Shown here piece by piece: positions 3,903 through 30,623 of a stretch of 30,623 bases of DNA. Under the pieces are notes generated by a model. It was not told the DNA's origin. It saw only the letters and a list, made by a program, of their open reading frames with translations, and did no database searches. The stretch is from IMG/VR virus record IMGVR_UViG_3300002307_001710, positions 1 to 30,623 of that record, one strand, 5' to 3'. This DNA is from a virus. Its lineage: Duplodnaviria > Caudoviricetes. Position numbers and translations under genes: made by a program. Every line of letters begins with the position of its first letter. Position 1 is the first letter of the stretch.

Positions 3903-5944
3903 TTAAAGTACTTTATGTGACCGGTTGTAGTCATAGTGCAGGTGCAGAGATTACTCATCCAACATCGAGTCGAACTGCTAATGATTTAAATTTATCTTTC
4001 GGAGGGGTGCTAGCTTGTAAATGGAGAGTAATCCACAAAAACGATGCCATTCTGGGAGATTGCAACGAGAACATTGTATCAAATGCAATCCATGGAATAT
4101 TAAAACTGCTCGAAACTTATCGCTCCGACGAAATTTTTGTTATAATTGGGTGGACTGCGGCGTCTCGTTCATCTTATATCTACGAAGGTGTTAGATATAA
4201 ATTCTGCGGCCCTGACGATGAAAAAGAAACATGGCCAGGGGCTGTTAGCATGGCATATAAAAGTTGGGTATTAGCCGATTTTAATGATGCACTGAATAAA
4301 TTTTCAGTAAGTTATCTAACTACGGTGAACTTTTTAGAGTATCATGGCATCGATTATTGTATGTTTAATTCGGTACATCCTGTAGCTTATCCTGATAAAA
4401 ATTTTAGACACGAATTGTATAACAACGAGCCAACACTTAAAATTTTTGATCACATAAAACAAAATTCAAGATATTTGCAACCTTACGATCGGGAAATGAC
4501 TTATTGGCATTACTTAGGTGATATAAAGAATTTTGATGATCGATTAGAAGGCAGATGTTATCATTATAAAGAAGATGCACATAGTTGTTGGGCCGACATT
4601 TTAGAAAAATTTATTCTTTCTAATACGGGTACTATCTCTTCAATCCCATTCGCATTTCAAAACTGGAATTACAATTACGGTTGGTGGCATCCTAACAACA
4701 CTCCTGTTAATTTTATATACGATGGTGAGAAAAAGTTACCAATTTCACACGATTTTATGTGGTTCTCACGTGACAATTGTGGGTTGACGCGAGAAGAAGA
4801 TCTTTCTAACTTTAATAATCCGCCGATTAAATGGGATTTTTTGTTTAAATATAAAAATATTCAATATGAACAGCTGGAAGATCTCGATAACATGCGATAT
4901 ATCTTCCCGATAATGCTTAGAACATGGAATTATTTTTTAAAAAATAAAGATTATGGGCTTACTTTTATAAGCGATAAAGTTTTTGACGACGTTAAAAAAG
5001 GTTTTGCAAAAATTGTATTAATTAATCCGTTAGAAGGATGTTATTGTGAACCAGATTGGGATATATTAGACTCTTGGTGCAACGATAAAAATTTAACAAA
5101 AGATCAGATCTATCTTATTCATGGAAATCTATCCTTACCGACTAAAAATTATAATTTTACATATATTCCGATTAGTGTGTTTGAATTACATCTGACACCC
5201 ACAGACAACGCACTTCCATACGTACCTACAAATACCCAGAATTTATTTTTATGTTACAATAGAGCATTCAGAAAACACCGAATAGTCCTTGTATGCGAAC
5301 TAATCAAGGCACAAATTTTTAACAGAGGAATTATTAGTTGTCACAGTAATGGCCCGAACCAAACAGAATCAAATCTAAAATCATTTGGGAGAGAGGATCT
5401 GTGCGACGCCGGTGTTAAATTAGACGATATGTTTCCATTGGAATTAGAGTACCCTCTTGCAACGACTAATCCAGTATCTGTATTAACTCTATCGCATCAT
5501 ACACTGACGTTTCTATCATTAGTAACCGAAACATTAACCGAATTTGAAATACAAATATTGCATCCAACCCACGACGGAAATAACCCTCCAATTTTCTTTA
5601 GTGAAAAAATTTGGAAACCGATAGCGGCCGGCCAACCATTTATAGTAGTTGCATCTCACGGCTTCTTAAAAGAATTAAGAAATCGAGGTTATAAAACGTT
5701 TGATGGGTGGATTAATGAAGATTATGACCTAGAACCGGATCTTGATAAACGTATTAAAATGATAGTTGAAGAGTTAGAGAATTTATCAATACTTAGTATA
5801 ACTGAATTACAAACTATGCGAGAAAATATGCTTCCGATACTAAATCATAATTTAGCATTGTTTAAAACAACAAGAGATAACTACTGCAATAACGGTGACG
5901 AGCCTGTTTATCAGGAAATAGTAAAAATTTGGAAGAGTTTTTAA
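3899..5944 (+). CDS. Fusion of an N-terminal SGNH-hydrolase-like domain and a C-terminal glycosyltransferase-like domain
   Basis: N-terminus: LYVTGCSHSAG, IIGWT..SR and YHYKEDAH. C-terminus: FLCYNR..R.HR, SLVTET and FFSEKIWKPIAAGQPFIV (GT-B/GT10-like SEK motif). ATGA overlap with the previous gene. Confidence 0.6.
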   Translation: MIKVLYVTGCSHSAGAEITHPTSSRTANDLNLSFGGVLACKWRVIHKNDAILGDCNENIVSNAIHGILKLLETYRSDEIFVIIGWTAASRSSYIYEGVRYKFCGPDDEKETWPGAVSMAYKSWVLADFNDALNKFSVSYLTTVNFLEYHGIDYCMFNSVHPVAYPDKNFRHELYNNEPTLKIFDHIKQNSRYLQPYDREMTYWHYLGDIKNFDDRLEGRCYHYKEDAHSCWADILEKFILSNTGTISSIPFAFQNWNYNYGWWHPNNTPVNFIYDGEKKLPISHDFMWFSRDNCGLTREEDLSNFNNPPIKWDFLFKYKNIQYEQLEDLDNMRYIFPIMLRTWNYFLKNKDYGLTFISDKVFDDVKKGFAKIVLINPLEGCYCEPDWDILDSWCNDKNLTKDQIYLIHGNLSLPTKNYNFTYIPISVFELHLTPTDNALPYVPTNTQNLFLCYNRAFRKHRIVLVCELIKAQIFNRGIISCHSNGPNQTESNLKSFGREDLCDAGVKLDDMFPLELEYPLATTNPVSVLTLSHHTLTFLSLVTETLTEFEIQILHPTHDGNNPPIFFSEKIWKPIAAGQPFIVVASHGFLKELRNRGYKTFDGWINEDYDLEPDLDKRIKMIVEELENLSILSITELQTMRENMLPILNHNLALFKTTRDNYCNNGDEPVYQEIVKIWKSF

Positions 5945-7159
5945 ATGAAAGTTGCAATGATCGGTTGTGGGAAATTAGGATTACCATGTGCAGAAGTAAT
6001 GAATACACATTACGACGTTGTAGGTTATGATGTTATTAAAAATCTCGATTCTGAAATATTGTTGGTTGACACACTTGCAGACGCAATTACAGATAGAGAT
6101 TTAATTTTTGTTGCAGTACCAACCCCACATGATCCAATGTATGACGGTAGTACTCCTATTACTAATCTGCCACCGAAGGACTTTGATTACAGTATTGTGC
6201 AAACCGTCCTAAAGGAAATTAATCAACATACGACATCTGGACAATTAGTTGTGTTAATCAGTACAGTGTTACCGGGCACTGTGAGATTACATTTAGCACA
6301 ATATATTACTAATTGTCGATTTATCTATAACCCTTATCTAATTGCAATGGGTTCAGTAAAGTGGGATATGGTTAATCCCGAATGCTTAATTATCGGAACA
6401 CAAGATGGTTCTGAAACTAGGGACGCTAAACTATTAGTTGATTTTTATAAACCATTAATGGAAAATGATCCAAGAATTAATATCGGAACATGGGATGAAG
6501 CCGAAGCAATAAAAATTTTTTATAATACCTTTATTAGTACAAAAATTAGTCTAGTTAATATGATTCAAGATGTCGCTGAAAAAAATGGCAACATTAATGT
6601 CGATGTTGTTACAGATGCGTTAAAACATTCGACACACCGTATTACTGGACCAAAATATTTAACTGCCGGAATGGGGGATGCCGGAGCATGTCATCCTAGA
6701 GATAATATTGCATTAAGATATTTAGTAGATCGATTAGACCTAGGTTACGATTTATTTCACGCTATTATGAGCAGCCGTGATCATCAAGCTAAAAATCTAG
6801 CAACCAAACTCGTAGACTTATCTAAAAAACATGATTTACCGATAGTAATACATGGAAAGGCATATAAACCATATGTATCATATGAAATTGGAAGTTACAG
6901 TCTGTTAGTCGGACATTATATTAAAGAACAAGGGGTTAAGGCCAATTATGCAGATCCACTGACGAATAATGAATGGTCAGGAAAGGCAGTTATTTTAATG
7001 GCCCATAATCCTTCTGTGACGTATACAGGTACTGGAGTAGAAGTTAGGCCTGAAAAATTCTATTTTAATTTTGAACCAGGGAGTGTAATTTTAGATCCGT
7101 GGAGAACGATCGGCAAGATTCACGGATGCGAAGTTATACATTACGGTAATACAAGGTAA
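5945..7159 (+). CDS. ugd: UDP-glucose/GDP-mannose dehydrogenase family protein
   Basis: GCGKLG Rossmann motif, FVAVPTP, STVLPGT, EAIKIFYNTF, catalytic GACHPRD and G.AYKP. Confidence 0.9.
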   Translation: MKVAMIGCGKLGLPCAEVMNTHYDVVGYDVIKNLDSEILLVDTLADAITDRDLIFVAVPTPHDPMYDGSTPITNLPPKDFDYSIVQTVLKEINQHTTSGQLVVLISTVLPGTVRLHLAQYITNCRFIYNPYLIAMGSVKWDMVNPECLIIGTQDGSETRDAKLLVDFYKPLMENDPRINIGTWDEAEAIKIFYNTFISTKISLVNMIQDVAEKNGNINVDVVTDALKHSTHRITGPKYLTAGMGDAGACHPRDNIALRYLVDRLDLGYDLFHAIMSSRDHQAKNLATKLVDLSKKHDLPIVIHGKAYKPYVSYEIGSYSLLVGHYIKEQGVKANYADPLTNNEWSGKAVILMAHNPSVTYTGTGVEVRPEKFYFNFEPGSVILDPWRTIGKIHGCEVIHYGNTR

Positions 7160-7164
7160 AATAT

Positions 7165-7381
7165 ATGACAACAATAGTAATTTACGGAGATTCATTCGCA
7201 GACGCGCTTTAAATCTTTAGAATTAACCAACAAAGCATGGCCAAATTTATTAAAAAAATATTATAAAATTACAAATTATAGAGCAAACAGGTCTTCGATT
7301 TATTACAGTTATAAAAATTTCATTGATACACATACTCGATATAATAAGATTATTTTTATAAAAAATAAGATTGACTTTTAG
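7165..7381 (+). pseudogene. Frameshifted, truncated SGNH-like gene relic
   Basis: ATG 7165 reads MTTIVIYGDSFAD then stops at TAA 7210-7212. The +1 frame from ~7202 continues ...TNKAWPNLLKKYYKITNYRANRSSIYYSYKNFIDTHTRYNKIIFI to TAG 7379-7381. Confidence 0.7.
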
Positions 7382-7399
7382 ATTACTAAATGTTAAAAT
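7371..7399 (+). promoter_or_regulatory. Sigma70-type promoter with extended -10
   Basis: TTGACT (7371-7376), 17-nt spacer, TGn-TAAAAT (7394-7399). An A/T-tract (UP-like) lies upstream, and the site is 30 nt before ATG 7429. Confidence 0.8.
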
Positions 7400-7428
7400 A
7401 TGATTTTAAACAATATTAGGTATTGCAA

Positions 7429-8616
7429 ATGATTAAAGCAGCAAAAAAGACTAAAGCAAAACGTGTAACAAAAGATAGCATGAGGCAACATGCTGCTAGA
7501 GATCATAGCCCTACATGGGACGATTATGCTTCGTGGACTACAGCAGAATTTACAAAGAATTTTCGAGATGCAATGCAATACTATAATCTCGAATTTTCAT
7601 CTAAGGATTTAAAACCCGCAGTATTAAAGTGGATGAAGCGAGAAGAGTACGATGTAAACATCTATAATGCTTACAAAAAGACTAAAGATTGGCGAACCAG
7701 TATTACAATGGGAGCATTGGCAAGCTGTTTCCTCCGCGGAATGCCTGATACTTTTTCGGGATTCAATGATGATAGAAACTCTCGCCAATGGCTAGACACT
7801 GCAATCATCAATACCATTGGCCGCGGACAAGACGATATCGAAGAAGAGACAGACGATAAATCAACAGAAAACAAAACAACTATTCAAGAACGTGTAAAAG
7901 ATATTGCAATCTCTATGGTGCGTGATATTGATGATATTATTGAAACTTTTTATAAGATTCCTGAAGATTTCAATCCCAAGGCATTTAAAGTTATTAACAT
8001 CCTTAAAAGTAATCAAGTAAAAGCCGGGCATGCTCGTGTAATTAAAGAAATGTACGCGAGTGAAATGGCAGATTATGCTGCATTAGTAACCGGAACTGCT
8101 GATGACGACCTAAAGGAAGGATACATTCATCTTAGCAAATCACAAATTAAGAATATACTTACATTCTATCAAGAAATTCTGTGTGCATGTGATATGCTTA
8201 CTGAACAGGCAAAAGTAACTCGTAAGCCACGTTCTAAAACGCCTGTTGCAAAGGATAAACTTATTGCTAAACTTAAATTTAAGAAATCTGACGATGCACT
8301 TAAACTTGTAAGTATTACACCAACTGAAATTATTGGTGCTAAGGAACTTTGGGTGTTTAATACCAAGACTCGAAAACTTGGCCGGTATATTGCCGACGAA
8401 ATGACCGGGCCATTAACAGTTAAAGGCACAGGGATCGTAGGGTTTGACGAATATAAGAGTATTCAAAAGACAATTCGTAAACCTGAAGAAACATTAAAAG
8501 AATTTAAGACAGCCGGTAAAGTTGCATTGCGCACATTTTTAGATACAATTAATGCAACCGATACTAAAATGAACGGCCGACTTAACGAAGATACAGTGTT
8601 GTTAAAAATTCTTTGA
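7429..8616 (+). CDS. Hypothetical phage protein, probably early
   Basis: Long clean ORF. ATG 7429 follows AGGT and is preferred to TTG 7423. The C-terminus (IIGAKELWVFNTKTRKL...QKTIRKPEE...NGRLNEDTVLL) resembles a hypothetical family I associate with T4-like phages; function unknown. Confidence 0.75.
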   Translation: MIKAAKKTKAKRVTKDSMRQHAARDHSPTWDDYASWTTAEFTKNFRDAMQYYNLEFSSKDLKPAVLKWMKREEYDVNIYNAYKKTKDWRTSITMGALASCFLRGMPDTFSGFNDDRNSRQWLDTAIINTIGRGQDDIEEETDDKSTENKTTIQERVKDIAISMVRDIDDIIETFYKIPEDFNPKAFKVINILKSNQVKAGHARVIKEMYASEMADYAALVTGTADDDLKEGYIHLSKSQIKNILTFYQEILCACDMLTEQAKVTRKPRSKTPVAKDKLIAKLKFKKSDDALKLVSITPTEIIGAKELWVFNTKTRKLGRYIADEMTGPLTVKGTGIVGFDEYKSIQKTIRKPEETLKEFKTAGKVALRTFLDTINATDTKMNGRLNEDTVLLKIL

Positions 8617-9458
8617 TGATAATAGTGACCGGGGCATCGGGATTTATTGGATCTAATTTAATTAAAGAACTATTAAATCGAGGTGAACGCAACATTCGGG
8701 GTATAGACTACGAGTTTAGAAACTATACTCCAGGTGTTGTTTTTTCTCCCGCTGACGACTTCTATAAGAACTTAGGAACTTATTGCAACGATGCAACAGT
8801 TATTTTTCACGAAGGTGCAATATCATCTACTACTGAAACTGATTGGCAGAACCTATTAGATAGGAATGTTAATTGTACATGGAATTTAATATACTATTGT
8901 AGAGATAACAATATCCCTCTACAATACGCATCATCTGCATCAGTTTACGGTAATCCATCTATTGAAGAATGGAAAAATCTTAATAAGAACCTAACTCCAT
9001 TAAACTTGTACGCTAAGTCAAAGCAACAAATAGACTATGTAGCCGATCTTGTTATAAACAGTACACGCCCTCCTAAGTTATTACAAGGTATGCGTTACTT
9101 CAATGTATACGGGCCAAATGAAGATCATAAAGAAGATCAATCTAGTCCCTATTATAAATTTCAAAAACAACTCAACGATCTCGGAAGGATACAACTATTC
9201 GAAGGATCAAAAGAGTTCTATCGAGATTTTATATCAATTGATGACGTTATTACACAAAAATTGTATCATTTTGAAAATAGCCCGTCGGGAATATACGATA
9301 TAGGAACCGGAAATCCAAAATCATTTTACGATGTTGCAATAGAACTGTGCGGGTCAGAAACCTTTATCGAATGGATTCCGATGCCGGACGATTTAAAAGA
9401 TCATTATCAAAAATATTCGTGTGCTATTCAGTCCGATGTACTCCGTTTTCAGCATTAA
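8616..9458 (+). CDS. hldD: ADP-L-glycero-D-manno-heptose 6-epimerase-like SDR
   Basis: IIVTGASGFIGSNL, FHEGAISSTTE, YASSASVYG, PLNLYAKSK (YxxxK), RYFNVYGPNEDHK, LFEGS...RDFI and IPMPDDLKDHYQ. ATG 8616 overlaps the upstream TGA. Confidence 0.85.
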   Translation: MIIVTGASGFIGSNLIKELLNRGERNIRGIDYEFRNYTPGVVFSPADDFYKNLGTYCNDATVIFHEGAISSTTETDWQNLLDRNVNCTWNLIYYCRDNNIPLQYASSASVYGNPSIEEWKNLNKNLTPLNLYAKSKQQIDYVADLVINSTRPPKLLQGMRYFNVYGPNEDHKEDQSSPYYKFQKQLNDLGRIQLFEGSKEFYRDFISIDDVITQKLYHFENSPSGIYDIGTGNPKSFYDVAIELCGSETFIEWIPMPDDLKDHYQKYSCAIQSDVLRFQH

Positions 9459-14247: not shown

Positions 14248-14790
14248 ATGACTTATATTATAGACAAAACTTTAGAATGCTGTTATGGGCATCGCGTATG
14301 GACCCAAAAACTTAACGGCGAATATGCAGCCGATCTTAAATGTGCTTGCAGACACTTACACGGCCACGAAGGTAAAATTCAAATACATCTTTCTGCACTT
14401 GTCCTCGATCAGACAGGCATGGTTACTGACTTTAGGCATTTAGAATGGTTAAAGAGGTGGATCAATACTTATATCGATCACCAATTCATTATCGACATGC
14501 ACGATCCATTGTATGATCAGATAATTGGAGCCAGAGAATTAGTACCAGTTTACGTTCCAGAAACAGATTATGTCACTGGTTACCACCTCGACCTAAGCGA
14601 CTTAGATCCTAGCACTCCGGAGTATGAGTATTATGAAGGATTTATGATCGTCGACTTTGTTCCAACAAGTGAAAATCTTAGTAAATGGATGGCTGACTTA
14701 GTTGATGAAAAAATGAAAAAGCTCGGAGTTACAGTTGATAGTGTTGAATGGTGGGAAACTCCTAAGAGCCGTTCTATATATTATCGTTGA
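14248..14790 (+). CDS. queD: 6-carboxy-5,6,7,8-tetrahydropterin synthase, long form
   Basis: YGHR, CRHLHGH, GMVTDF, IDH, PTSENL and WETP (PTPS/T-fold motifs). Confidence 0.9.
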   Translation: MTYIIDKTLECCYGHRVWTQKLNGEYAADLKCACRHLHGHEGKIQIHLSALVLDQTGMVTDFRHLEWLKRWINTYIDHQFIIDMHDPLYDQIIGARELVPVYVPETDYVTGYHLDLSDLDPSTPEYEYYEGFMIVDFVPTSENLSKWMADLVDEKMKKLGVTVDSVEWWETPKSRSIYYR

Positions 14791-14816
14791 CACCCTCGCA
14801 TTTGACCTGTTATAAT
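14787..14816 (+). promoter_or_regulatory. Sigma70 consensus promoter with extended -10, overlapping the queD stop
   Basis: TTGACA (14787-14792), 18-nt spacer, TGn-TATAAT (14811-14816). Confidence 0.8.
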
Positions 14817-14822
14817 CTACAC

Positions 14823-14987
14823 ATGACAACATATACTGTAACAATAGAAAAAGATCCCGATACTGGAGAATTAATATTACCAATTCCGCCCGAGCTTCTT
14901 GAAGAACTAGGATGGAAAGAAGGTGATACATTAGTTTGGACAATTAACAAAGACGACACAGTAACATTACATAAACGCGATGAATAA
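14823..14987 (+). CDS. AbrB/MazE/SpoVT-like small DNA-binding protein (54 aa)
   Basis: GELILPIPPELLEELGWKEGDTLVW is the swapped-hairpin signature. ATG 14823 is preferred because the TTG at 14787 is the -35 box. Confidence 0.82.
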   Translation: MTTYTVTIEKDPDTGELILPIPPELLEELGWKEGDTLVWTINKDDTVTLHKRDE

Positions 14988-15996
14988 AATTGGTTTTGCT
15001 TGTAAGTGGATTGATCATGCCGGACAGGTCAATGGTATTAAACCGACTGACGACTGTAAGAAGTACAACACAGGTACTACTACAGTTGCATGGCTTAGAC
15101 GCCAAACAACAGATGTTGCTAACGAAAAGCTCTGGAACCTTATGGTTCAGAATATAGAAGCAACATACAGGCTTGTAGAACGAGTAGGAGAATTAGATGA
15201 GCATCTTAGAATGGTTCGTATCAGCAGCGATCTTTTACCTGTCTATACACATAATGATTTCAAGCATTTCTGGCATCAAACAGATGTTAGAGATTATGCG
15301 GCAAGGCATTTTGCGGAAATTGGACGTATTGCCCGGAATCGCGGTGTACGTTTGTCTTTTCATCCTGGTCAGTTTTGTTGTATCGTCAGTGATAATCCGG
15401 ATGTTGTTTACAGGAGTTTAGAAGAACTTGAGTATCACACAGATATGTTGCGATGGATGGGGTACGGAAAAACATTCCAAGATTTTAAATGTAATGTTCA
15501 TTTAAGCGGTAGGCTGGGGGTAGATGGGTTTAACGCTGGTTGGAATCAAATGTCTCCTGAACTGCGCAACTGTTTAACTTTAGAAAATGACGAATATCAA
15601 AAAAATATCAACGAATTACTCAAACTAAAGGATAAAGTTGCTATTGTTTTGGATATACACCATCACTTAATTAGCGACGGTGAATATATTAGTACTACGG
15701 ATAGTCGAATTAAACACATCATTGATAGTTGGCGAGGAGTACGACCAGTAATCCATTACAGTCAATCTCGAGACGAATATATTGGAGAATTTTCAAATCG
15801 AATTCCAACGTTAACTGAAATGTTGTCTATTTCAAATAAATCGAAATTACGGGCACATAGTGATTTTTACACTAATCAGCACACCAACAATTGGGCACTT
15901 CAACACTTAGAGTGGGCAGATATTATGGCGGAGTCGAAGTCAAAAAATCTCGGTGCTCAACAATTATTTAATCAGATGTTGGAGAAATGCTATTAA
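14980..15996 (+). CDS. uvsE: UV DNA damage endonuclease
   Basis: IGFAC, RISSDLLP, RLSFHPGQF, LTLENDE, LDIHHH, VIHYS, AHSD and MAESKSK. Confidence 0.92.
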   Translation: MNKIGFACKWIDHAGQVNGIKPTDDCKKYNTGTTTVAWLRRQTTDVANEKLWNLMVQNIEATYRLVERVGELDEHLRMVRISSDLLPVYTHNDFKHFWHQTDVRDYAARHFAEIGRIARNRGVRLSFHPGQFCCIVSDNPDVVYRSLEELEYHTDMLRWMGYGKTFQDFKCNVHLSGRLGVDGFNAGWNQMSPELRNCLTLENDEYQKNINELLKLKDKVAIVLDIHHHLISDGEYISTTDSRIKHIIDSWRGVRPVIHYSQSRDEYIGEFSNRIPTLTEMLSISNKSKLRAHSDFYTNQHTNNWALQHLEWADIMAESKSKNLGAQQLFNQMLEKCY

Positions 15997-16735: not shown

Positions 16736-19700
16736 ATGTCACTACAAACAATCGATATTGGTGTTGCAGGGAATGACGGTACTGGTGATAGTATCCGTGA
16801 ATCATTCCGTAAAACTAATGACAACTTTTTAGAATTATATGCTGTACTTGGATTAGGAAAACAAATTAGTTTTTCTTCGTTAAGCGATGCACCTGTTTCA
16901 TATTTGGGTAATCAAATCATCGCTGCAACAGCCGATGCTAAAAGTTTGGCTGCAAAAACAGTTATCGGTGGTACAGGTATTCAAATTGCTAATACTAATT
17001 CTACGTTAACCATTACTTCAACAGCAGCAGGGGTAGCTGGTGATACTCGCCCAACCTTAACAGCACCATTAAATGCAGCAGGATTTCCAATTGGTGCAAT
17101 ACCTGATCCAAGTCAACCATTAGTTGAGTTGTTTAATGCGTTGTATGGTGATACTACTAGCATTACTATAGATCAAATGGCTATTTCTAAAGGATATGCT
17201 GATAACAATTACCTTAAAGTTACGTCATTAAATCAAGTATCAGGACCCCTTAGAGTAAGAGCACAGCCATTGGTTCCTCAAGTCGGAGTCCAAGATTATG
17301 ATTCAACATTAACTAGTAATTATTTGTCAACCGAAGCGATGCAACGTAAAGATGTTGTATACCGCGGCGGTGACGAAATGAGCGGAATTTTGACATTAAG
17401 TGATCATCCCGCACCGTTGTCTGGCTACGGTTCGCCAACCGGACAATCAGACTTACAAGCAGCAACTAAATTTTATGTTGACAACAGCACCTTTGCTAGT
17501 GGTATTAACTTATATGTTTCTACTACTACTGGCGATGATTTACAACAAAGAACACCAGCAGGAAAAGAAGGAAGATTTTGGCAATATGCTTATAAATCAG
17601 TCGGTGCTTCTGTATTGGCTGCGGATACTTTAATTAATCTTTCTCAACAAGAACCAGGTCCGTATCAACAATTAATTTCATACACGCTCGGGCCAGACAA
17701 ATATTTTTCGTCTACATACCCCTCATCTAGCGGATATCGTGTTAATGGTATTCAGGTAACTGGCGGTAATAGCGGAGATATCGGTTATCAGTCTGCTTTC
17801 CAATTATTACAGGCCAATAGAACATTTATACAGAAAGAAACTATTGCATATATTAATAGCAAATATGTAAATCCATTTACATACGATGTTGCGAAATGGC
17901 AACTCGATATTAGTAATATCTTAGATGCAGTCGGCTATGACTTAGTTTTAGGAACTACTTATAATACAACAAGGGCTGCATCTGCATATTTTGATGGGGC
18001 TGCAATCAATATTACTAATGAATTGGTTCAAACTATTGAAGCAATCAAATATATTAAAAATACAATTCTTGGTTATGAATACAACAGTATTGCATTAGAA
18101 ACATATGTAGGAAAAGTCATTGAAGCAATTTGTTACGACTTGATCTTCCAATCAAATTATCAAAGTACACAAGTAGCGTTGTACTTTCCATACGCAAACA
18201 CTGATCTCAGTAATACTCAGATAATTGCAATTATTACTGATCTTCAAAATACATTGTTCGGTATTGCTGCTACACCGACGATTTCAAATGCAACTGTAAC
18301 TAGTACAGTTAGTGGACAAATTAATCAAAATACTGTTACTGTTTTAAACAATACCGGATTAGTGATCGGTATGAATGCTTCTGGAACTGGAATTGCGTCT
18401 GGAGCTGTTATTACAAATATTAATAGTTCTATTATTACATTAAGTATTAATAACTCGGGGCCAGTTAGTGGACCCGGTACATTTGGTACAAATGCTATTA
18501 ATGTTTCAAGTGCCAGTAACATTGCAGTAGGACAAAATGTAGCAGGAATAGGAATTAGTACCGGAACAACTGTACTTAGTGTCGTCAATAATGTAGTAAT
18601 TTTAAGTTATACAGTTACTTCGTCATCAATTAGCGGAACCGGCCAATTCTCAGTTTCTGCAATCTTGAATAGTCCGACAATACCGGCGGCTGCGGCTACA
18701 TCGGTGTCAGTTAACTTCAGCAATATTATTAGTATTATTACAACTGGAAATCTTCCAACAATAGCATTTCCACCGTTAGCATTGACTAATTCAGGTGCAA
18801 TTTCTGCAAAAATCTTATTATTGAATAATTTATCATTCCTACAGGCAGAAACAATTGCATATTTGGGTTCTAACTATCCAACTCTAAGTTATAGCAGAAC
18901 AAAATACAAAAATGATATCAAGTACATTGTTTGGAGTTTAATTTATGACTTTACTTACGGTGGTAACAGTCAAAGTGCATATACTGGATTAAACTATTGG
19001 AACGGGAATGTTGAAAATATTGCAGCAGACGAAGTAGCCCCGATCATTGATGTATTAGGATATATTAATACACTAATGCAAAATATTGTTACTAATACAT
19101 CGGCAGCGACTGTATATCAAACAACAGTCATTCAATATGTTAATTTATCTTATCTAAATGGCAGCAATGCTGTTACGTCATTCAGTGCAAATATCGGACT
19201 TATTAAAAATTTAATTAATAGCAACTTATATTCATATGCAACCGTTCTTCCTACTGTTTCAGCCGCAGATTCAAATCTACAAACAGTTAGAACTTCGATA
19301 CGGGCTAATGAAAATAATTATAAGACAAATGCAAACACATATGCAATTAATAACTTCCCGATTATTACTGATTCGGGCGTATTAACTACTATAACAAATT
19401 TATTTGCAATTATTACTAATTTATTATCATTAGGAATTAGTTCAAGATCAACGCCGGCATTTACTAATCCAAGCGGTTTAAATTCTGGGTATAGCGATGC
19501 GAGAACGTTATTATTAAATTCAACTAACTTAAATTTCATTACTGCCGAAACTAATGCGTGGATTGTTGCGAATAACCTATCATTACCAAGCGATTACGAT
19601 AGTTCGAAAAGCGCACGTGATTTAACATACATTATCGAAGCAATTTGTTATGATTTCACATATGGTGGAAATGCTGCTACTACATATCTTAGCGGGAAGT

Positions 19701-22700
19701 TATATGCAAATCTTGCGGTTGATTTAGTCAGCATATTCACTTCGGCAATAACTTTTGCACAAAGTTTAGCAACTTTAATTGCAACAAATACATCACCGAG
19801 CATTCATTATTCAGCGGCGGCACAATATAAAGATGCAACTGATTATCCAAACGGGTCAGTTGCAGTATCTAGTATTAACAGTTTGTTCAATGCGTTAATA
19901 TCAACCCTTAATACTGGGATCTTACCGACTACTGTATATCCCGTATTATCAAACTATAGCAATACTGTACAAGCGGCTAGATTAGTTATTCTTAACAATT
20001 CAACAACGATCACTAGTAATACTACTGCTTATATTAGTGCAAATTATTCAGGTGGATTTAGTTACAACGAAACAATTTGCTATAGAGATATCGGTTTTAT
20101 TATTGATGGTGTTTCTATCGACATTTTGACAGCAGGAACATATCAGTGTATTAACTCGGGTCGGGCATTCTATAGAAATGCAAGTGCATCTGCAATCGCA
20201 ATAGGGGTAGACCGCGTACAAACAATAGATGGTATTGGGTTTGTGCAAACATTAATAGGGCAGGTGTTAACTCAAACATCTGCAACTCGGTATCAAACTG
20301 TTCAATCACAATATACTAACAACACGTTGACTTCTGCATCACAAGCAATAATCGATGCAAATAACGGCATGACTACGTTGCTTAATATTATTACACAAGG
20401 TTTAGGTGCAGCGCCTACTCCAAGTTTCGGTACAGGATTGTGGCTAGTATCATTTAACAACGGCGGTAATGGCTACGTTGATCAAGGTGCGCCAGGCGAT
20501 GTTAAAATTATTCCTGCAAAAGTATTGGCTGGGTCAACATCCGGCGCATATGGTAGTATTGTAACTTATACCCCGGGGTCAACAACTAATACAATAAATG
20601 ACACAATCGCAGTAAGATTAACTAAGCCCGGATTTTTCCAAACTATTTCAACTACTGCTAGCGGAACCAACGGCACTAACACTATTACTGTAGCAAGCAT
20701 AACTTCCACTAACTTTACAGCGCAAATCGGAATGGGGATAACTGCTTCTAGCGGTATTCCAACCGGAACGGTTATCACTAACATTAATGGACTAGTTATT
20801 ACATTAAGCAAGCCGATAACTGCTACGCTTACTAGTTCTGCTGTATATATCGGGGAACAATTACGATTTGGCGAAACCGTATCTAATCTTAATATCACAA
20901 TTCATATCGAAAGCGGTATTTACTACGAAGATTTTCCATTGAAATTACCGGCAAACGTAACGATCAAAGGTGATGACTTCCGTAGAACAATTATACGCCC
21001 ATTAGACCGAGTGAGCCAAAGCCCATGGCGTAATATTTTCTTCTATCGTGATGCTGTTGTCGATGCATTAGAGATCGGTGTAGTTGACTATAATGGAACA
21101 AACTCTGCTACGAATACTACTGCAACATTGCTCGCAACTACCGGATTAATTACCATTACTCTGTTAAGTGGTCAAGTATCATCTAGTTGGATTGGGCAAA
21201 TTTTTGCCGATAACAATATTAGCAACGGTAATGCTAAGAGGGGCAGGGCAATTATTACATCGGTTAGTGGAAATGAGATGACAGCCACAGTGATATATCC
21301 ATTCCTAGCAGGTAGTATACTTACTTCCGGAAATTGGTTTATCTTCTCTAGTTTAAACTATGGCAGACATTACCTAACTAATCCTTTAGATCCTACTAGC
21401 ACACCGAAAAATAACCAAGATATCGACGTGTTGTTATGTAACGAAGCTGATCGTATTGTAGATATTACTTTCCAAGGTCATAGAAGCTTCTCAATGGTGC
21501 TTGATCCAACCGGTAATGTTAAAACTAAGTCGCCATATGTTCAAAGCTGTTCAACATTTACACAAAGTATTAATGCTAAACAGTTTGCAGGCGGACAATA
21601 CATTGACGCATTTACCGGAAGATTATTTGGTACAATTACCGCTATATCTAATAATGGTTATACTGTAACAGTACAAGGTGGGGTTAACAGCGGATTAGAT
21701 ATTCGTCCTCCTTCTGCACCGTTCTCATTCTATGTCGGTGGTTTCCGTTATCAAGTTGACGATGTTGTAAGTTGGAATTATGACACAGGTACACAATTAG
21801 GTACCGTTGTATTAACTCTCGATGTCGGTACTCCGTATTTGTATGATACTTACGGAAATCTTGTTTACAACCAGACTAAAGCAATGCGAGATATTGGATA
21901 TGTAATCGGTGCTGTAACAACTGACATGGTGTTGGGCACTAATTACCGTTCTATACATGCCGGGTTGGGATATCTAAGACCGTATTCAAGCAATTTAACA
22001 GGTAGTTTAGCAGCACTTACTATATCCAGTATTTCATATGCTGGCACAATAGCAAATAATCTTATTACTAATACTGCTGCACAAACTGCAATTACTACCA
22101 ATATTAATATTATTAATTCAATGATTAACCAGGGAACAACCGGTATCCCTACAATCATATGGACATTGCCAGTAGGCGTAACTATCAGTAACAATCTTGC
22201 TAAAGCACAGGCTATTATTCAGAATAATCGAACATTTATTCAAGCAGAAATTGTGGCATGGATCCAGACAAATTACGTAACAAAATTATATTCGGGATAT
22301 AATTCGTCTATAAGCCAACGAGATATCGGATACATTGTTGATGCGATTACTTACGACTTATTATATGGAGGTAATAGCCAAACTGTCGATAGTGCAGAAG
22401 CATACTGGAGAGGAACAACAAGTTATATACTAGGCCTCGAAGCAATATATGTCGCAGCATATGGTCGATTACAAACTGTACTGGACCAAGTTATTGCTGG
22501 ATCTACTGTGACTGTGTCCGGTGGTAATAATCAAGCTCAAGTTACATCAAATGCTCCGAGCAGCCCAACTACTTACAGCGCAATTACTGATCAATTATGT
22601 GCAATATTAATCGACTATGTTCTTGATGGGACATATACTGCATCATACAGCGGAACATTATCACCGATTTCAATCATTACAACAATTGCATCAAATGGAA

Positions 22701-25700
22701 CGTTTACAACATCATCGGCACATAACATGAATGTTAATGATGCCGTGTTAGTAAACAGTGTAGGTAGCTCGTGCTCAATATCCAACACTACATTAACTGT
22801 AAGCGGAACCATTACAGGAGCGTTTACTGTTGGGCAGTTATTATCAGGAACAGGAGTTGCTGCAAATACTTACATTACCGCAGTTATGTTAGGGGCAGGG
22901 GGGGCAGGGACATATACTGTTAGTATTAGTCAATCAGTTGCTACTACATCTATTACCGGTACAGGAGTATTATATTTTGTTAACGCTACTCCGTTAACAA
23001 CAACATTTACATTATCATTAATACAAGGCGGTACAACATTAACTAACTTTGCAGCCGGAACTGGATTGTCATTACAGGTCGAAACTATCAAGTTCCCAGT
23101 ATTAACAGCACAAGATTCGGGTAAAAAAACAGCATTAGCAACGATTGAAACATCAAGGTTTACGGTTGAATCTAGTGTTATTACCTACTTAAATAACGGT
23201 GCTGGCCAAGCAGTAAATCTAGAACAAGGCGGTAATAAGTCTATGTTAGGAAACGATCACGCCATGCTTAATGACTTAGCATACGGGGTTATTGCCAATA
23301 ACGGTGCATTTAGTGAACAAGTATGTACATTCACTTATTACTGTCATACCGGACACTGGTCAAATAATGGTGGGCAAATTCGATGTGTAGGCTGTTCAAA
23401 TACATTTGGCGATTACGGATTACGTTCGTCAGGATATGATCAGACTGAACTACCAGATTCTATTAATCTGTCAAATGATACTATGCAAACAGCTAGCATT
23501 TATCGAAAAGGTCTGTTTGCATCTTCTGCTACTGCAACTACATTAACTGTATACATTATCGGTTACGAATATACTCCAACTAATGGATCAGAATTAGAAA
23601 TCGATCACGGAGTATTTGGAGGATCGATCACACGTTATGAAATTTCTTCAATTACACACACACTAGTTACGGTTTATGGTCAAAATGTTCTCCAATTAAA
23701 TTTAAGTACAACAGGAGACAATAATACTACATCAACTGGGTTAGCAACTAACTTATATGATGGTCAAATAGTTACTATTAGAGTATTAACAAACATCAAA
23801 TTCTACAATATTGATAACGTAAGACCTACTAGACCGTCAACTGCGTTACAATATTATGCTAATTTAAGTTCAGTATATCGTATTGTTGCATATAATTTAA
23901 CAGAATCGACCGGTGAAATATTAAGCAATAATATTGCTATTTTACAAAGCGATACCTCTTTCTTATATTATCAGCTTGTTACTGATGTTGTTAACCTTAC
24001 ACAACCTTCGCCGAATATCACCCCAGTTACTGCTACATATGTAAGCGGTTCGTTAGGTGCTACTTCAATCGTATTCAATAATGTTACAAACGGCCCTATT
24101 GCGGCAGGGATGTCAGTGTTAGGTACTGGTATTACAAGCGGTCAATATGTTGTTAGTGTATCAGGGTCCGGTAACATTACCGTAGTGTTGAGTTCTGCTA
24201 CCACTAATACTCCAAGCGGAACTTATCAATTCTCAACGTTAACTCAAGGATCTAGAGTAGGTGATACTACAATTGCTGTTACACCAATTGCTGATGGACT
24301 TACAATTAATCAACTTAATACCGGAATTTATATCACAGCATGGTATGGTAGAACATATCAAATAACCAGTTATGTCCCTCCAATACTTAATGCATCGGGT
24401 ATTTTCTTTAGTTGGACTTCGGGAACTTCTACATTGGTTGTATCTAATGTATCCGGAACCATAACTACCGGAATGGCCATTACTGGATATGGAATCACAG
24501 GAACTGTAACTGTTGGTACTATAACTACTGGGGCAACATATACTAATATTGTAGTTAATACATCAGGTGGTGGCAGTATTTCTTCTCCGTCAGGTACAAT
24601 TACGTTCGGAACTGCAAAAAATAGCTACATTACTATAAATCCAATTCCGGTATATAATAATGCAGCTGATGGTACTGCTGTTTCTGCATTAACATTTATT
24701 AGTGCAGTCCCGCAAACCGGAAGTACAAGTGGTTACTTAATAACTTTTGACATTCCTTATAGTAAATTATCAGTATTACCGGTTATCGACAGCGTATTAA
24801 CCGTTGCTAATAATGGAAACACTGGGTATAACGGATCTTATCAAGTTACTAATGTAAATTCGAGTACACTTGTTTCTGTGAGTAGTGCAAGCTCTCTCAG
24901 TATAGGAATGAGTGTAACAACTACAACAGTTGGTGCATATATTCCAACTGGGGCAATTATTACTTCGATAGGAGTCAATCAATTTACAATCAGCCCAGCG
25001 GCATGGATTACTTCTGGTGCAACATTAAATGCCGCTGCGAGCAATACAATTGTTCAGACAATTACTATTAGTAACGTGGGCAGCGGATATACAGTTGCGC
25101 CGACTCTTGTTATTACTAACGGCGGATATAGTATTCAAGCAACCGCAACTTGTACTATTGTTAATGGTGTTATTAATACAGTAACTATAACAAATCCAGG
25201 TTTTGGATATACTAGTACTCCATCTGTTGTTGTATCGGGTGGTGGTGGTGGAATTAATGCAGCATTTACTGTTGTATTAAGTACAATTCCTACTGCTGTA
25301 ACAACAACAAGCGCAGGAACACTTACTAACCAATTACAATTGTTGTATCTATCTGCACCAGGGGTTTATGGCACTGTATATTCAATTTCAGCAAGCGGTA
25401 ATGCTATTGTTTTAAGCTCTAGTGTAGGGTTATCAGCAACTAATCCGATTATATTCACCTTTAGTGGAACATTCGGAAACCTAACTTCTGGTACAACATA
25501 TTATGTATTAACTAATAATACTGCTACTGGATCTATTACTGTTAGTACATCGTCCGGAGGAGGTGCATTTACTCCGGCTGCGAGTACATTAGCAGGAGGA
25601 ACAGTATACACATTCTTTGCTCCCCAATATACATATGGCACTGGTATCACATCATCAGTCGCAGCAGCACCGTCCGGAACAGGACCATATACAGTTGCAT

Positions 25701-28462
25701 TTACTATTGCGTCGTCGTCGATAACAAATGGTGCGTATTATCATGTAACCGGTAGTTCTAATACACTATATAACGGATTCTGGCAATGTACAAGTGCAAC
25801 GTCAGGAAGCGCAACAAGTATTATATTATCATATCCATTAAATCCGGGCACTTTCTCAGGCCCGGTTACTATTACTAAAGAAGTTACTAGTGGAACAAGC
25901 AATCAATACGGTATTGCAAAAGCATTTAATCTAACCAATGTGTTTACTATGAAAGCCGGCTATCCTAGCGGCGTCGGTGGACAAATTATTGTCAAAATTA
26001 GTACATGCCGAGCAACAGGACACGATTTCTGTAATATAGGTACTGGAGGATATAATACTTCTAATATTCCTACTTCTATTTACGGTAACCCAGCATTAGC
26101 GTTCCAACCATCACAACAGATATTAGAAGAAAGTGTAGGACGTTGTTTCTATGTAAGTACTGACGAAAACGGTATCTTCAAAGTAGGTAGATTCTTCCAA
26201 GTTGACCAAGGAACTGGTACTGTTACATTTAGTGCAAGTATTGCATTAAGCAACTTATCAGGATTAGGATTTAAAAGAGGAGTTGTTGTTAGTGAGTTCT
26301 CAACAGACTCTACAATGGTTAATAACGGTACTGACATTGTTCCTGTAGAATCAGCTATCAGAAGTTTCGTCGATTATAGGTTAGGATTAAATTATAGCGG
26401 TGGGCAGTCAGCGATCTTAATTGGCCCAGGATTCCTACCATTAGACGGCTCGTTAAGTATGAAGAAGTCATTTAATATGAACTTCAATAATATCTATAAC
26501 GTCGCTACTCCAGTTAATACCAACGATGCTACAAATAAAACTTATGTTGATACATTAGTAGCAACATACAACGGATTATCTAAATTAATCGATGTTACAT
26601 TTACTTCATTAACTGACGCAAATCAAATAGTTTACAACGGAACCAGTAGCAAATGGGTCAATACTGCTCTACCATCCGGAAATGTTAATATTACATATAG
26701 CGATTTGACTAATACATTGACTACAACTATTCAATCTAATGTAGTTGTTAATTCAATGGTGAGTTCAAGTGCTGCTATTGCTCAAAGTAAACTAAGTTTA
26801 AATTCTGCTACTACTAGAGCAAATGCAACTAATATTACTCAAGCAAACCTTGGACTAGCTAGTTTTGATTCAACGTACTTTTCGGCATCTTCGGGTTGGA
26901 TTAGTTTAGTAAACGGTTCACTTAGCATTGGGAATTTAAGTGCGATCGGTAATGGTTCAATTGTTGCGAACTTTAGCGGTGGTAGTGCAAGTCCACAAGA
27001 GGTGACAGCACAAGCTGTTGTACAGAATGGACTTACTCAAGTATTCGGTGCAAGTGCAGGTATAGTTACGTACGGCGGATCATTAAACTCTACGTCTCTT
27101 ACTTCGGTTACAACCACTGGGTCACCGAACAGTTTAGTTAAAACTGATAGTAACGGATATATTAATGTCGGGCAAATATCACTCAATAGTTATAAGATAC
27201 TAGCAACTTCTGGTACAACTTTACAAGTATACACACCTAGCGGATACAACTTCTTAACATCGGTAGGTAGCACATTAGGAAATACAACTACATCATTTAC
27301 CGGAACTCTTGATGTTACTGGCGGGACATTAAAATCAACTTCATTAACAACCGGTGCAAGTGCTACAAATGGCACAATTATCGGCAATTGGCAGGTGTTA
27401 ACTTCAAGTGCAATAGATTTTTCAAATGGTACATTAAAATCAACAACATTAACTACTGGCACTGGTACTACAGTAGGTTCAGTTGTGGGTAACTGGCAAG
27501 TAGGATCAGGTAGTACATGGGACATATCAAGTGCTACATTAAAATCAACAACATTAACCACAGGGGGAACCACTACACCGGGCACTATTACTGGTGCCTG
27601 GTCTGTTAATGGATCATTATCAATTGGCGGAACTGGCAATTCCATTACTACTACAGGAATTACATCAGGTTCGCCAACTACCGCAGGCACATTAATCGGT
27701 GCTTGGGGATTAACAGGAAGTATGACCGGTATCTGGACATCAACTGGCACCTTAGATGTGACTGCTGGCACATTAAAATCATTAACATTAACTACAGGAT
27801 CGTCGACCACACCGGGAACATTAACTGGGGCATGGAATGTTACAGGATCGTTAACCGGCGGGAACGTTAATGTAGGTACTTCATTAACCGTAACTAGTAT
27901 TACTTCGGGGTCTAGTTCAACCGCAGGATCATTAACTGGTAATTGGTCATTAACAACTGGTAGCACATTAGATTGTACATTGGGCACGTTTAAAACTACG
28001 ACTATTACAACCGGGGCTGATGCAACTCCGGGAACAATTCAAGGCACGTGGAGTTTAATAGGTGCAAGTAAATTACAAGCAACCTACGCTGACTTAGCGG
28101 AATTTTACGAAGGTGATATAGAATACACACCAGGAACAGTATTAGTATTCGGTGGGGATAAAGAAGTTACAACAACTGATATTATGAACGATACTCGAGT
28201 AGCGGGGGTAGTAACAACAGATCCTGCGTATGTAATGAATGCAGACCAAAAGGGCATCAAGGTATGTATTGCGTTGGCAGGGCGAGTTCCATGTAAGGTC
28301 GTTGGAAGAATTAAAAAAGGAGACATGTTAACAACAGGTGCTACACCGGGATTTGCTGTCAAAGCAAGCAATCCTACATTAGGTAGTATTATAGGTAAAG
28401 CGTTAGAAGATAAAGACTACGGCGAAGCCGGAGTAATTCAGATTGCCGTAGGGAGAGCATAA
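16736..28462 (+). CDS. Giant (3908 aa) baseplate-anchored fibre/spike protein
   Basis: N-terminal [25 protein letters not shown] (T4 gp9/gp10-like anchor), [16 protein letters not shown] fibre motifs, pectin-lyase-like [18 protein letters not shown], several repeat families, and a C-terminal YADLAE...GRVPCKV...GKAL intramolecular chaperone. Confidence 0.85.
27326..28070 (+). repeat. ~35-aa tandem repeats LKSTTLTTG....GT..G.W
   Basis: ACATTAAAATCA recurs at 27326, 27431 and 27536 (105-nt period) and at 27770, with more degenerate copies up to the chaperone domain. Confidence 0.85.
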
Positions 28463-28464
28463 TA

Positions 28465-30623
28465 ATGCCGCAAAAATTAATTAATATCGGTTCTTCAGCA
28501 AATGATAAAACTGGGGACCCGTTGAGAACTGCATTTGATAAAGTAAATCAAAATTTTACCGAACTATACCGAGTTGACACAAACACAAAATATCATTTAG
28601 GTGATGATCAAATATTTGTTGATTTAGACCCAGTTAGCGGTACAGTTATTATACAAAGTCAATTTGATTCTAGTATGCCTATCTATATCAAAGGTGCTAA
28701 TTGCAGCAACGGTGGAGTCGGAGGCAACGTTGTTATCGAAGCAGGCGGGGCGCCATTACCAAACACTGGAACAACTGGAAACATTGAACTGGCCGCCCAA
28801 CAAACTACTATTGAATCCAATAATAATATGTGGACATTTGGCGATGATGGTACATTAACATTACCAAATGATACTAAAATTATTCCTGTTGCATTTGACG
28901 GCATTCACTTTAATGTGAACGAAAATATTTGGAACTTTGACGCAAATGGTGTACTAAACTTCCCCAATAACAACGGACAGATAGGACAACTAGAAAGTCC
29001 ATATACAGGATTAGAGTTTCGTACTGGGTCAGGCGCCGACTGGATTGGCATCAGTTACGGTGAGATCAACGACAATAATACTAGCTACTTTTACTTTGAC
29101 AAAGACGGTAATGATTACTTAACTGCTAATCATCAAGCACATTTACAGATTAAAAATCCTGCACACGACGGGCATGTTGAATGGTTATTTGATTCCAATG
29201 GTAATTTAACATTACCGACTAACGGTGATATACAATTTACTAACGGTACAATTAGTACAGTAGATGGCGGACTAACTGCTCGTGCTTACGAAGGTAGTTT
29301 TAAGATTACAGTAGACGAGCATGGTCCGGTAACTGTACCAACAATATCCTGGGAGTTTGATATAGGTGGTACTTTAACATTACCGTCTACAAATATAATA
29401 ACAGCGGCTTTGAGTACTGTTGGCACCATAATATCAGGCATTGAAACTTGGGATTATCATAACTCATCTGGTGATCCATATGCTTGGATTACGGTCGGCG
29501 GTAATGCCCCAGTGTTTCAATCACTATACAATCGAGGCGATGAGATTATTGGATGGAGTTTTTATTCGACTTTTGACCCTGGTAATGTTGTAACTATTAC
29601 ATCTCGTGATGCAGGTGGGCCATCATTGACTTTTAGTGGTGATCTAGGGGCGGCCCCGTATACAGCATATTCACCGGACTATATATCAGTTGTCGGTCAT
29701 CCGGTTGTTATACAAACTAATGGTCCACAATTTCAAGCTAACTGGACTTTTGGCACAACTGGTACATTAACATTACCAAACGGTGCTTCTATTGGAAGTA
29801 GCGACTCGTTATTAGGCATCCCGTTGACCACAGCCCGTGGCACGGTATTGTTTGGCAATACTCCTGAACAATGTGAGCCCCCTACTGCTGATTCGCATTT
29901 CCACATAATGAAATCTGATCCTACAAATGTTGATTTATTCTTTGGTGACGACTTCAACTATGTTAAATTGCCTAGCAATAATGGTGTAATAATCAACACT
30001 TTTGATTTTGTCAATCCGCCACAGCAATGGCAGTTTGGCACAGACGGTAACCTGACAATGCCACTTGAAACCAAACTAAATTCAGGAGGTGTTGGTGTAG
30101 CTAACAGCGCAGAGATTGGTACAACAGTTGTATTTGATGGTCCAGATATTGTTGATAGTGAAATCTTCATGGGCTCAGGCTACGGTGAATTCCGTAGCAT
30201 CTACAACAAAACCAGTCCACTTGACTCAGGTCTAGTCTATGCTGGGGTAGAAGGATTTAACTACACCCAACTTGGCAACGTCAACTTTGCTGGTATGGTC
30301 AGTCAGACTCCTAACATTGACAGCATGTATAGTGTTGGGCTAAATGAAGACAGACAGATTGTCATTGGATTTACACAAAACGAGCAGACACAAGCATCAA
30401 CGGATTGGAGTGTTACAGTAGGAACTCTTAACACCGACATGACTGTTAATGGTTTGTTTGCTAATACTACTACTACTGTGATTGGATCAGGACTCTCATC
30501 TTGGCAGTTTGGTGGTGATGGTAATTTAACACTGCCAGCAGGTGGAGACATTAAAGATAGTACAGGCACAAGTGTACTAGGTGGAGGTGGTGGAAGCACA
30601 TTGGTCAATGGTTCAAAAACTGT
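28465..30623 (+). CDS. Second tail fibre protein, 3'-truncated (absent from the ORF track)
   Basis: ATG 28465 reads MPQKLINIGSSANDKTGDPLRTAFDKVNQNFTELY, the same anchor motif as the giant protein. The frame stays open to the window end and contains seven WxFxxxGxLxxP repeats. Confidence 0.88.
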   Translation, partial: MPQKLINIGSSANDKTGDPLRTAFDKVNQNFTELYRVDTNTKYHLGDDQIFVDLDPVSGTVIIQSQFDSSMPIYIKGANCSNGGVGGNVVIEAGGAPLPNTGTTGNIELAAQQTTIESNNNMWTFGDDGTLTLPNDTKIIPVAFDGIHFNVNENIWNFDANGVLNFPNNNGQIGQLESPYTGLEFRTGSGADWIGISYGEINDNNTSYFYFDKDGNDYLTANHQAHLQIKNPAHDGHVEWLFDSNGNLTLPTNGDIQFTNGTISTVDGGLTARAYEGSFKITVDEHGPVTVPTISWEFDIGGTLTLPSTNIITAALSTVGTIISGIETWDYHNSSGDPYAWITVGGNAPVFQSLYNRGDEIIGWSFYSTFDPGNVVTITSRDAGGPSLTFSGDLGAAPYTAYSPDYISVVGHPVVIQTNGPQFQANWTFGTTGTLTLPNGASIGSSDSLLGIPLTTARGTVLFGNTPEQCEPPTADSHFHIMKSDPTNVDLFFGDDFNYVKLPSNNGVIINTFDFVNPPQQWQFGTDGNLTMPLETKLNSGGVGVANSAEIGTTVVFDGPDIVDSEIFMGSGYGEFRSIYNKTSPLDSGLVYAGVEGFNYTQLGNVNFAGMVSQTPNIDSMYSVGLNEDRQIVIGFTQNEQTQASTDWSVTVGTLNTDMTVNGLFANTTTTVIGSGLSSWQFGGDGNLTLPAGGDIKDSTGTSVLGGGGGSTLVNGSKT

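Follow-up and report, generated by a model that had tools for sequence, protein, structure and literature searches.

Phycobiliprotein-like globin repeats with one candidate bilin site in a giant fibre-type phage protein

The virus record IMGVR_UViG_3300002307_001710 (Duplodnaviria; Caudoviricetes) provides a stretch of 30,623 nucleotides, which was analysed as a whole and is called here the window. On its plus strand, an open reading frame (ORF) at 16736..28462 encodes a giant protein of 3908 amino acids (aa) of the tail-fibre or baseplate-appendage type, with tail-fibre PHROG matches along its length and 226 homologues. It carries seven repeats that are predicted to resemble the globins of phycobiliproteins, one of which keeps the C-x-R-D motif. 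The explanation that we favour, at a probability of about one half, is that the protein forms a trimeric tail fibre in which the fifth repeat attaches a phage-made bilin at Cys1115, the six Cys-less repeats serving as structural beads. As to its parts, fold and homology to phycobiliproteins are highly probable, and bilin binding at unit 5 is, taken by itself, rather probable.

Seven repeats and their predicted fold

The seven unit starts named in an earlier note on this DNA all lie in frame within the ORF. When scored with a family profile built from 2487 units, these seven among them, they reach 44.5-143 bits, whereas none of 50 copies of the protein shuffled locally exceeds 4.9 bits, and the same profile finds no unit in the other ORFs of the window. 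The whole unit spans about 150 aa and thus exceeds the motif quoted in the note, which had also ended the array at 22408, short of the end of unit 7 at about 22639. The helix pair A..LL..N..FI..E, given there as part of the repeat, is in place in units 1, 3, 4, 5 and 7; units 2 and 6 have only the part from the RD helix onward, and in unit 1 the last helix is missing from its place. From unit 1 to unit 7 the site residues read KWQLDI, ALETYV, KYKNDI, KSARDL, ICYRDI, KAMRDI and ISQRDI. As had been noticed from the letters, Arg-Asp is kept by four units (4, 5, 6 and 7) and the sole Cys at the bilin-attachment position is encoded by the TGC at 20078, which is Cys1115 of unit 5 (19961..20416). This unit is complete, and its Cys1115-Tyr-Arg1117-Asp1118 (20078..20089) aligns to the chromophore Cys helix of phycobiliproteins. 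The C-x-R-D motif that marks phycobiliproteins and the CXRD globins BBAG-1 and BBAG-3 is therefore present in one of the seven units, which makes unit 5 the candidate bilin site.

The reading of the repeats as globin or phycobilin folds is supported by the predicted structures. AlphaFold2 run on an 85-row alignment models unit 5 as seven helices with a pLDDT of 88.8, and all 33 rows listed by Foldseek against the PDB are phycobiliprotein entries (E 0.02-0.11, TM 0.48-0.65). In the VIA structural comparison, which covers 48,161 chains, the top match is phycoerythrin beta (5aqd_M; Z 14.5, 2.4 Å over 140 residues), with model residues 1-145 placed on residues 33-184 of the chain. Ranks 1-7 are all phycobiliproteins (Z 12.4-14.5), followed by photocobilins (11.1 and 10.8) and sensor globins (at most 10.6). 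The same order is obtained with unit 3 (18791..19234), a complete Cys-less unit (best Z 12.7, 2.1 Å, 116 residues, 8imk_G), and the models of both units display the seven-helix globin core of phycobiliproteins. What would have spoken against this fold, according to the earlier note, were repeats neither globin-like in prediction nor matched by any profile; the predicted unit is a seven-helix globin, and profile comparison with phycocyanins (profiles made from 149 extracted sequences) gives the alpha and mixed profiles a probability of 88-89% (E about 2e-6) and the beta profile only 13.5%.

Searches by sequence lead to the same family at low significance. Unit 5 reaches an E of 0.083 in the PDB sequence search; all nine rows of one such search are phycocyanin alpha (E 0.08-2.1), as are phycobiliproteins 12 of the 13 rows of another (E 0.25-7.3). 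The one row under 0.001, Crov588, was rejected as a compositional or partial match, and so was a YHYH Pfam match on the 3908-aa protein. Pfam gives no PF00502 match on this protein or its units, as the gathering score is not reached; the family is weakly recognized in 3 of 85 units, its summed whole-protein cut-off is passed by all four long relatives rescanned, and it stands as a precomputed label on 19 of the 120 homologues listed. The unit profile run against five cyanobacterial genomes returned six rows (E 0.3-0.9), and the one locus inspected is a phycobiliprotein gene.

Several results weigh against a close relation. No Foldseek PDB row for unit 5 falls under E 0.001, and a VIA Z of about 13-14 is often reached by helical models, so that weight is placed on ranking and coverage. 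The phycocyanin profile signal is lost once the motif is masked, the sequence likeness thus resting on the C-x-R-D helix, and two of 30 block shuffles come near the unshuffled score of 41.2, with 33.5 and 36.2. A chance match of amphipathic helices, the possibility raised in the note itself, was nevertheless rejected, as searches of three kinds all lead to the same family and the motif lies on the equivalent helix. The proximal His of heme-binding globins is not found among the top residues of conserved profile columns (1008 units). The N-terminal helix pair used for alpha/beta assembly is also missing, as the alignment of unit 5 with the subunits begins at their residues 33-35; in a larger model, two VIA rows borrow unit 2 helices in its place at high root-mean-square deviation. 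As modelled, the unit is a remote phycobiliprotein relative without assembly helices, which falls outside PF00502 by score.

The C-x-R-D site and the possible supply of pigment

Conservation of the site was counted among the 120 listed homologues. Of the 983 units with residues at the site, 607 have Cys, and 596 of these read C-x-R-D. The fifth position of the array, slot 5, can be located by the segment that follows unit 5, present in 111 of the 120 proteins. C-x-R-D is kept there in 108 of these 111 orthologues compared with 320 of 694 other units, and of the 19 proteins with one site, 16 have it at slot 5. The slot has no conserved partner Cys, a second Cys being present in no more than 12 of 111 sequences at any other column. 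When the analysis is carried out within slots, in the 71 of 120 proteins that have the canonical seven-unit layout, the other 49 being set aside, the 253 units with Cys all have both Arg and Asp, while among 236 Cys-less units Arg is found in 60 and Asp in 75; profile columns 65 (A), 69 (Y) and 85 (T) decay along with Cys inside each slot. On a tree built without these three columns, the Cys state changed at least 56 times, just two of them at slot 5; the counts come from related sequences, so the events are not independent. Judged from sequence, the pattern is that of a ligand pocket repeatedly switched off with one slot kept, and of the roles left open in the note it speaks for tetrapyrrole binding by unit 5 and for Cys-less units that are structural.

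In the preferred explanation the pigment is supplied by the phage, and the enzymes are encoded by relatives. Heme oxygenase and bilin reductase (FDBR) occur on the orthologue-bearing contigs G008, G047 and G053, and also on G044 and G057. In particular, G053 carries a true orthologue (55% identity over 334 N-terminal residues) with seven units, of which those at slots 5 and 6 have the site, and also encodes both enzymes; about 72 kb separate the oxygenase from the orthologue, unlike the clustering with heme oxygenase and FDBR typical of BBAGs. In the complete 383-kb genome G057, all eight units, distributed over five proteins, keep C-x-R-D. One of these proteins (L295:2035-3159, minus strand) belongs to the nitroreductase family (PF00881, 27.6 bits) and has one intact C-x-R-D unit as an insert; it is encoded among radical SAM genes. 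This case suggests that the unit also acts as a ligand-binding insert in enzymes. Elsewhere in the same genome (L294, L296), two smaller ORFs also have intact units, one of them below 300 aa in length and without a Pfam match, the other of about 750 aa.

Heme oxygenase lies within 2 kb of FDBR in all 80 reductase loci, which had been chosen by presence of the reductase. Among 18 long FDBR contigs searched, 11 have the unit, including all nine of those of at least 160 kb, and the seven misses are at most 39% complete. In two relatives the bilin cassette comes after clpS (L052:10138-13019 and L053:7277-8818), and its neighbours in L052 are ORFs resembling, by eye, an HSP20 and an ATP-grasp ligase. 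As to attachment, neither psbA/D nor the lyase CpeT was detected in any of 22 uncultured contigs (CpeT is present in S-PM2 and P-HM2), nor CpeS in any of 26 records. The hosts are therefore probably not typical cyanobacteria, and attachment of a bilin would be spontaneous.

A number of observations count against a pigmented fibre in this phage. The window, under one tenth of a genome of about 350 kb, holds no bilin gene. The two enzymes lie side by side, adjoining clpS, in only 2 of 45 fibre-bearing fragments, and no reductase was found in 20 further fibre-bearing fragments, the longer ones among 80 loci, all fragments being 2-60% complete. G077, which is 60% complete and has an orthologue 56% identical, has neither enzyme. 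The co-occurrence in nine of nine long contigs has no matched control and may reflect clade membership only. Both enzymes are present in Pelagibacter phage Mosig, in which no unit is found (best score 7 bits); this indicates that the enzymes have other uses and led us to reject an obligate link between cassette and domain; in this phage (L429), hemO and the bilin reductase lie directly upstream of neck-protein genes. Within the protein itself, five well-conserved profile columns of unit 5 (65, with S in place of A; 68; 69, with F in place of Y; 81; and 134) differ from the consensus of the slot, and the unit may be decaying too; the orthologues at L283, L288 and L291 are without any intact C-x-R-D.

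Architecture, surroundings and relatives of the fibre-type protein

The placement of the units on a virion appendage, as put forward in the earlier note, agrees with the Pfam and PHROG matches to the putative fibre. The N-terminal segment (16736..16891) is of the T4 gp9/gp10 attachment type: its residues 1-43 pass the PF07880 cut-off (25.4 bits against 25), and phrog_677 matches with E 1.7e-11. PHROG tail-fibre and baseplate families match the start, middle and end of the ORF. As a lead, the C-terminal domain (28055..28459) resembles the Peptidase_G2-like intramolecular chaperone of fibres (Atlas score 0.98; PF11962 on 15-19% of cluster members; phrog_19602, tail fibre); sequence search found no solved relative of this C-terminus. 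Trimeric tail fibres are recognized by a baseplate-attachment N-terminus together with a chaperone-type C-terminus, and both are found here, the latter with the standing of a lead. By homology, the protein is likely placed in the virion as a trimeric tail fibre.

Along the plus strand, the profile and the models resolve a succession of continuous and interrupted units. Unit 1 (17783..18076; KWQLDI, no Cys) comprises five predicted helices and is followed by the core of unit 2 (18077..18271), which begins at the RD-position helix and is degenerate at its site (ALETYV). Unit 2 is interrupted at 18278..18655 by two inserted beta-rich modules with predicted strands, which resemble small phage virion-protein domains (VIA Z 8.1 to 8eci_2 and 7.3 to 9n71_B); a helix past the insert (18659..18751, predicted helix 307-326) likely completes it. 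Beyond unit 3, a detached helix pair and one more helix (19286..19435, pLDDT blocks of 82-95, with VIA rows in agreement) likely complete units 2 and 1. Units 4 (19484..19918; KSARDL) and 7 (22190..22639; ISQRDI) are complete and Cys-less by profile, and unit 6 (21842..22153; KAMRDI) lacks the first helix pair in place. A detached segment at 23099..23215 (aa 2122-2160), present in 46 relatives, matches this pair (hhalign to unit positions 3-27, probability 66.6%, E 5.4e-5) and possibly completes unit 6; a complex prediction of the two pieces scored 0.30, with the mark at 0.32.

The model of aa 345-907 (pLDDT 90.9, pTM 0.79) places both beta modules in unit 2 and three extra helices past unit 3. 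In several VIA rows the aligned part is a compact bundle from about residue 39 to about residue 559 of this model (about 3 Å), a hint that the last of these helices returns to unit 1. On these models, units 1, 2 and 6 would be discontinuous, nested domains.

An identical 3908-aa protein is also found on a 353-kb contig, and relatives occur on contigs of up to 373 kb, so the source is a jumbo phage. Directly downstream of the fibre gene, a second T4 gp9/gp10-type protein (28465-30623) is ended by the contig edge and has no globin unit in the part present. Directly upstream, at 14248-15996, are QueD-like and UvdE UV-damage endonuclease genes, the latter (14980-15996) fitting life in sunlit water. 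Positions 1-9458 hold a single run of three radical SAM genes, two with SPASM domains, together with a UDP-glucose dehydrogenase and an epimerase; radical SAM genes also occur in G057 beside its nitroreductase-globin gene.

The unit family is broad: grouping at 50% identity leaves 1630 clusters, a single chain has up to 37 matched stretches, and the number of sites ranges from 0 to more than 30. Among 50,697 GenBank phage records, 288 have the unit, namely 279 named cyanophages and nine marine viruses. Genes of the baseplate or fibre region carry C-x-R-D in 5 of 5 units of S-PM2 p088 and in 2 of 2 of P-HM2 gp7, and in none of the three units of a second P-HM2 protein. Long relatives (P0003, P0004 and P0121-P0125; 4,200-6,800 aa) have 22-37 matched stretches, with C-x-R-D kept in 31 of 34 units of P0003 and 29 of 35 of P0004. 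In S-PM2 (L460:5953-19268), cpeT lies four genes upstream of the unit-bearing p218 (3779 aa), a candidate lyase-substrate pair; tRNA cluster coordinates inside p218 in this record may be an annotation offset. Neither the scoring of stand-alone relatives of 78-298 aa with the unit alignment nor an Atlas search with unit 5 gave a usable match, results by which absence is not shown.

Possible roles and known systems

The mechanism that we propose starts from the seven repeats within a protein that has fibre-type ends, whose predicted globin fold is nearest to phycobiliproteins minus the two N-terminal assembly helices. In the relatives, heme oxygenase and bilin reductase would turn host heme into biliverdin and then into a phycobilin; the window itself is without these genes. 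The bilin would enter the pocket of unit 5 during fibre folding in the infected cell. In phycobiliproteins the equivalent Cys, Arg and Asp attach and hold the bilin, and here Asp1118 and Arg1117 may hold it while Cys1115 would join it without a lyase, by analogy with the bacterial BBAG globins. In the weakest step, the bound pigment, being photo-inert, would absorb light, quench oxidants and stiffen the fibre in sunlit water. Given binding, such a passive protective role has about an even chance, and it is preferred to a switch because BBAG holoproteins have been described as photo-inert.

A purely structural role, with the globin module as a rigid bead, the Cys engaged in a disulfide or in packing, and no ligand anywhere, is unlikely, if the most serious of the alternatives. 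It would agree with the fact that six of seven units are Cys-less and unit 3 still keeps the predicted fold, with the apparently nested units broken by beta inserts, with an Asp at profile column 53 that is 99% conserved independently of the motif, with the few orthologues devoid of any C-x-R-D, and with the presence of ligand-free globins such as RsbR in the VIA list. Against it, each of 253 Cys units also has Arg and Asp and other columns are lost together with the Cys, slot 5 has no conserved partner Cys, and a unit with intact motif sits in a nitroreductase-family protein, where a fibre role is inapplicable. Host mimicry, in which the domains bind phycobilisome parts or partners, gained no support and is very improbable: the cultured carriers are indeed cyanophages, yet the alignment starts at residue 33-35 of phycobiliproteins and so leaves no assembly helices, identity is 9-16%, close relatives lack cyanophage photosynthesis genes, and phycobilisomes are intracellular.

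Two further alternatives keep a ligand in the pocket. The first, that light alters the conformation of the slot-5 bilin, which thereby controls fibre deployment or adsorption and lets the particle sense day and night, is improbable. The position-specific and nearly invariant slot 5 would suit it, as would the light-dependent adsorption reported in the available text of PMC6628666 for P-HM2 and S-PM2, both with C-x-R-D units; against it, the BBAGs described in the accessible part of PMC10151467 are photo-inert, site numbers from none to more than thirty are dose-like rather than switch-like, and the adsorption trait is, according to the same text of PMC6628666, not known in heterotroph phages, the relatives here being without psbA (0 of 22). 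Quite doubtful is a different ligand, such as heme, non-covalent biliverdin, or a host tetrapyrrole or iron, as adsorption bait or iron cargo. Photocobilins (Z 11.1 and 10.8) and heme sensor globins (Z 10.6 and 10.4) do follow closely in the VIA ranking, BBAG-2 binds biliverdin without CXRD (PMC10151467, available part), and an iron-supply role of hemO is discussed in the accessible text of PMC11480375; the profile has no conserved His, however, the motif is the phycobilin C-x-R-D, and a reductase accompanies the oxygenase in 80 of 80 loci, albeit loci selected by the reductase.

If the site of unit 5 binds a bilin, as in the tail-fibre explanation that we prefer, many aquatic virions would be chromoproteins, in a family so far annotated only as structural. 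The phage-encoded bilin enzymes, whose purpose is called enigmatic in the accessible text of PMC11480375, would find a phage-encoded acceptor, and the light-dependent adsorption left unexplained in PMC6628666 would have a candidate cause. The bolder possibility, of low probability, is that aquatic myoviruses mount a self-made bilin on their tail fibres as a photoreceptor with which the free particle senses light and times adsorption; if true, it would account for hemO-pcyA/X cassettes in hosts without phycobilisomes and for the adsorption behaviour of S-PM2 and P-HM2. The protein of the window is a nearly minimal case that isolates one slot under strong selection next to six natural Cys-less controls, and small lyase-free biliprotein domains could find use as tags.

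No published description of these repeats was found in a search in which subscription journals were thinly covered and supplements, with possible automatic PF00502 labels, lay outside. The result on slot 5, the coupling within slots, the insertion in a nitroreductase-family protein and Mosig as a counter-example are new here. Compared with the phycobiliproteins of PF00502 (phycoerythrin, allophycocyanin, phycocyanin and the ApcE bilin domain), the phage unit shares the seven-helix core and the long helix with C-x-R-D followed by D(L/I)..GG. It differs from them in the missing N-terminal assembly helices, an extended loop of about 23 residues ahead of the last helix, and the low identity mentioned above; the phage units are moreover tandem or discontinuous within a virion-type chain, six of seven without Cys, and no lyase is nearby. 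The BBAGs and the photocobilins or photoglobins (PMC10151467; 8j2w, 8j2y) are, like the phage units, non-antenna bilin-type globins tied to heme oxygenase and FDBR genes. In the available part of that paper, BBAG-1 and BBAG-3, with CXRD, bind bilins without lyases, the tested BBAGs have a low fluorescence yield, and none is placed in phage structural proteins. BBAGs are stand-alone or B12-fused bacterial proteins encoded beside their enzymes, whereas the phage globin is a fibre repeat located tens of kb or more from the cassette.

That cassette, the hemO-pcyA/X pair, is the same gene pair found beside clpS in relatives of the window. The accessible texts of PMC11480375 and bioRxiv 10.1101/2020.02.13.942896 name host phytochromes or BBAGs as possible acceptors and none in the virion; the former reports phycocyanobilin made by a freshwater phage pair, the latter lists four large freshwater phages that have ho1 and pcyX-like genes, and PMC10452541 counts such bilin genes in cyanophages. 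Further close relatives are the giant tail-fibre and baseplate proteins of T4-like cyanophages (S-PM2 p088 and p218, P-HM2 gp7; PHROG 4527, 5342, 701 and 18802), which have the same repeat by profile, with a Foldseek TM of 0.78 to S-PM2 p088. The light-dependent adsorption of S-PM2 is independent of host photosynthesis, and that of S-PM2 and P-HM2 is put down to host receptors and/or tail fibres (PMC6628666, available text). Unlike these carriers, the phage group of the window has genomes of about 350 kb with no psbA seen. The cyanophage homologues are annotated just as structural, tail or hypothetical proteins, and most of their units keep C-x-R-D, compared with the single one of the window protein.

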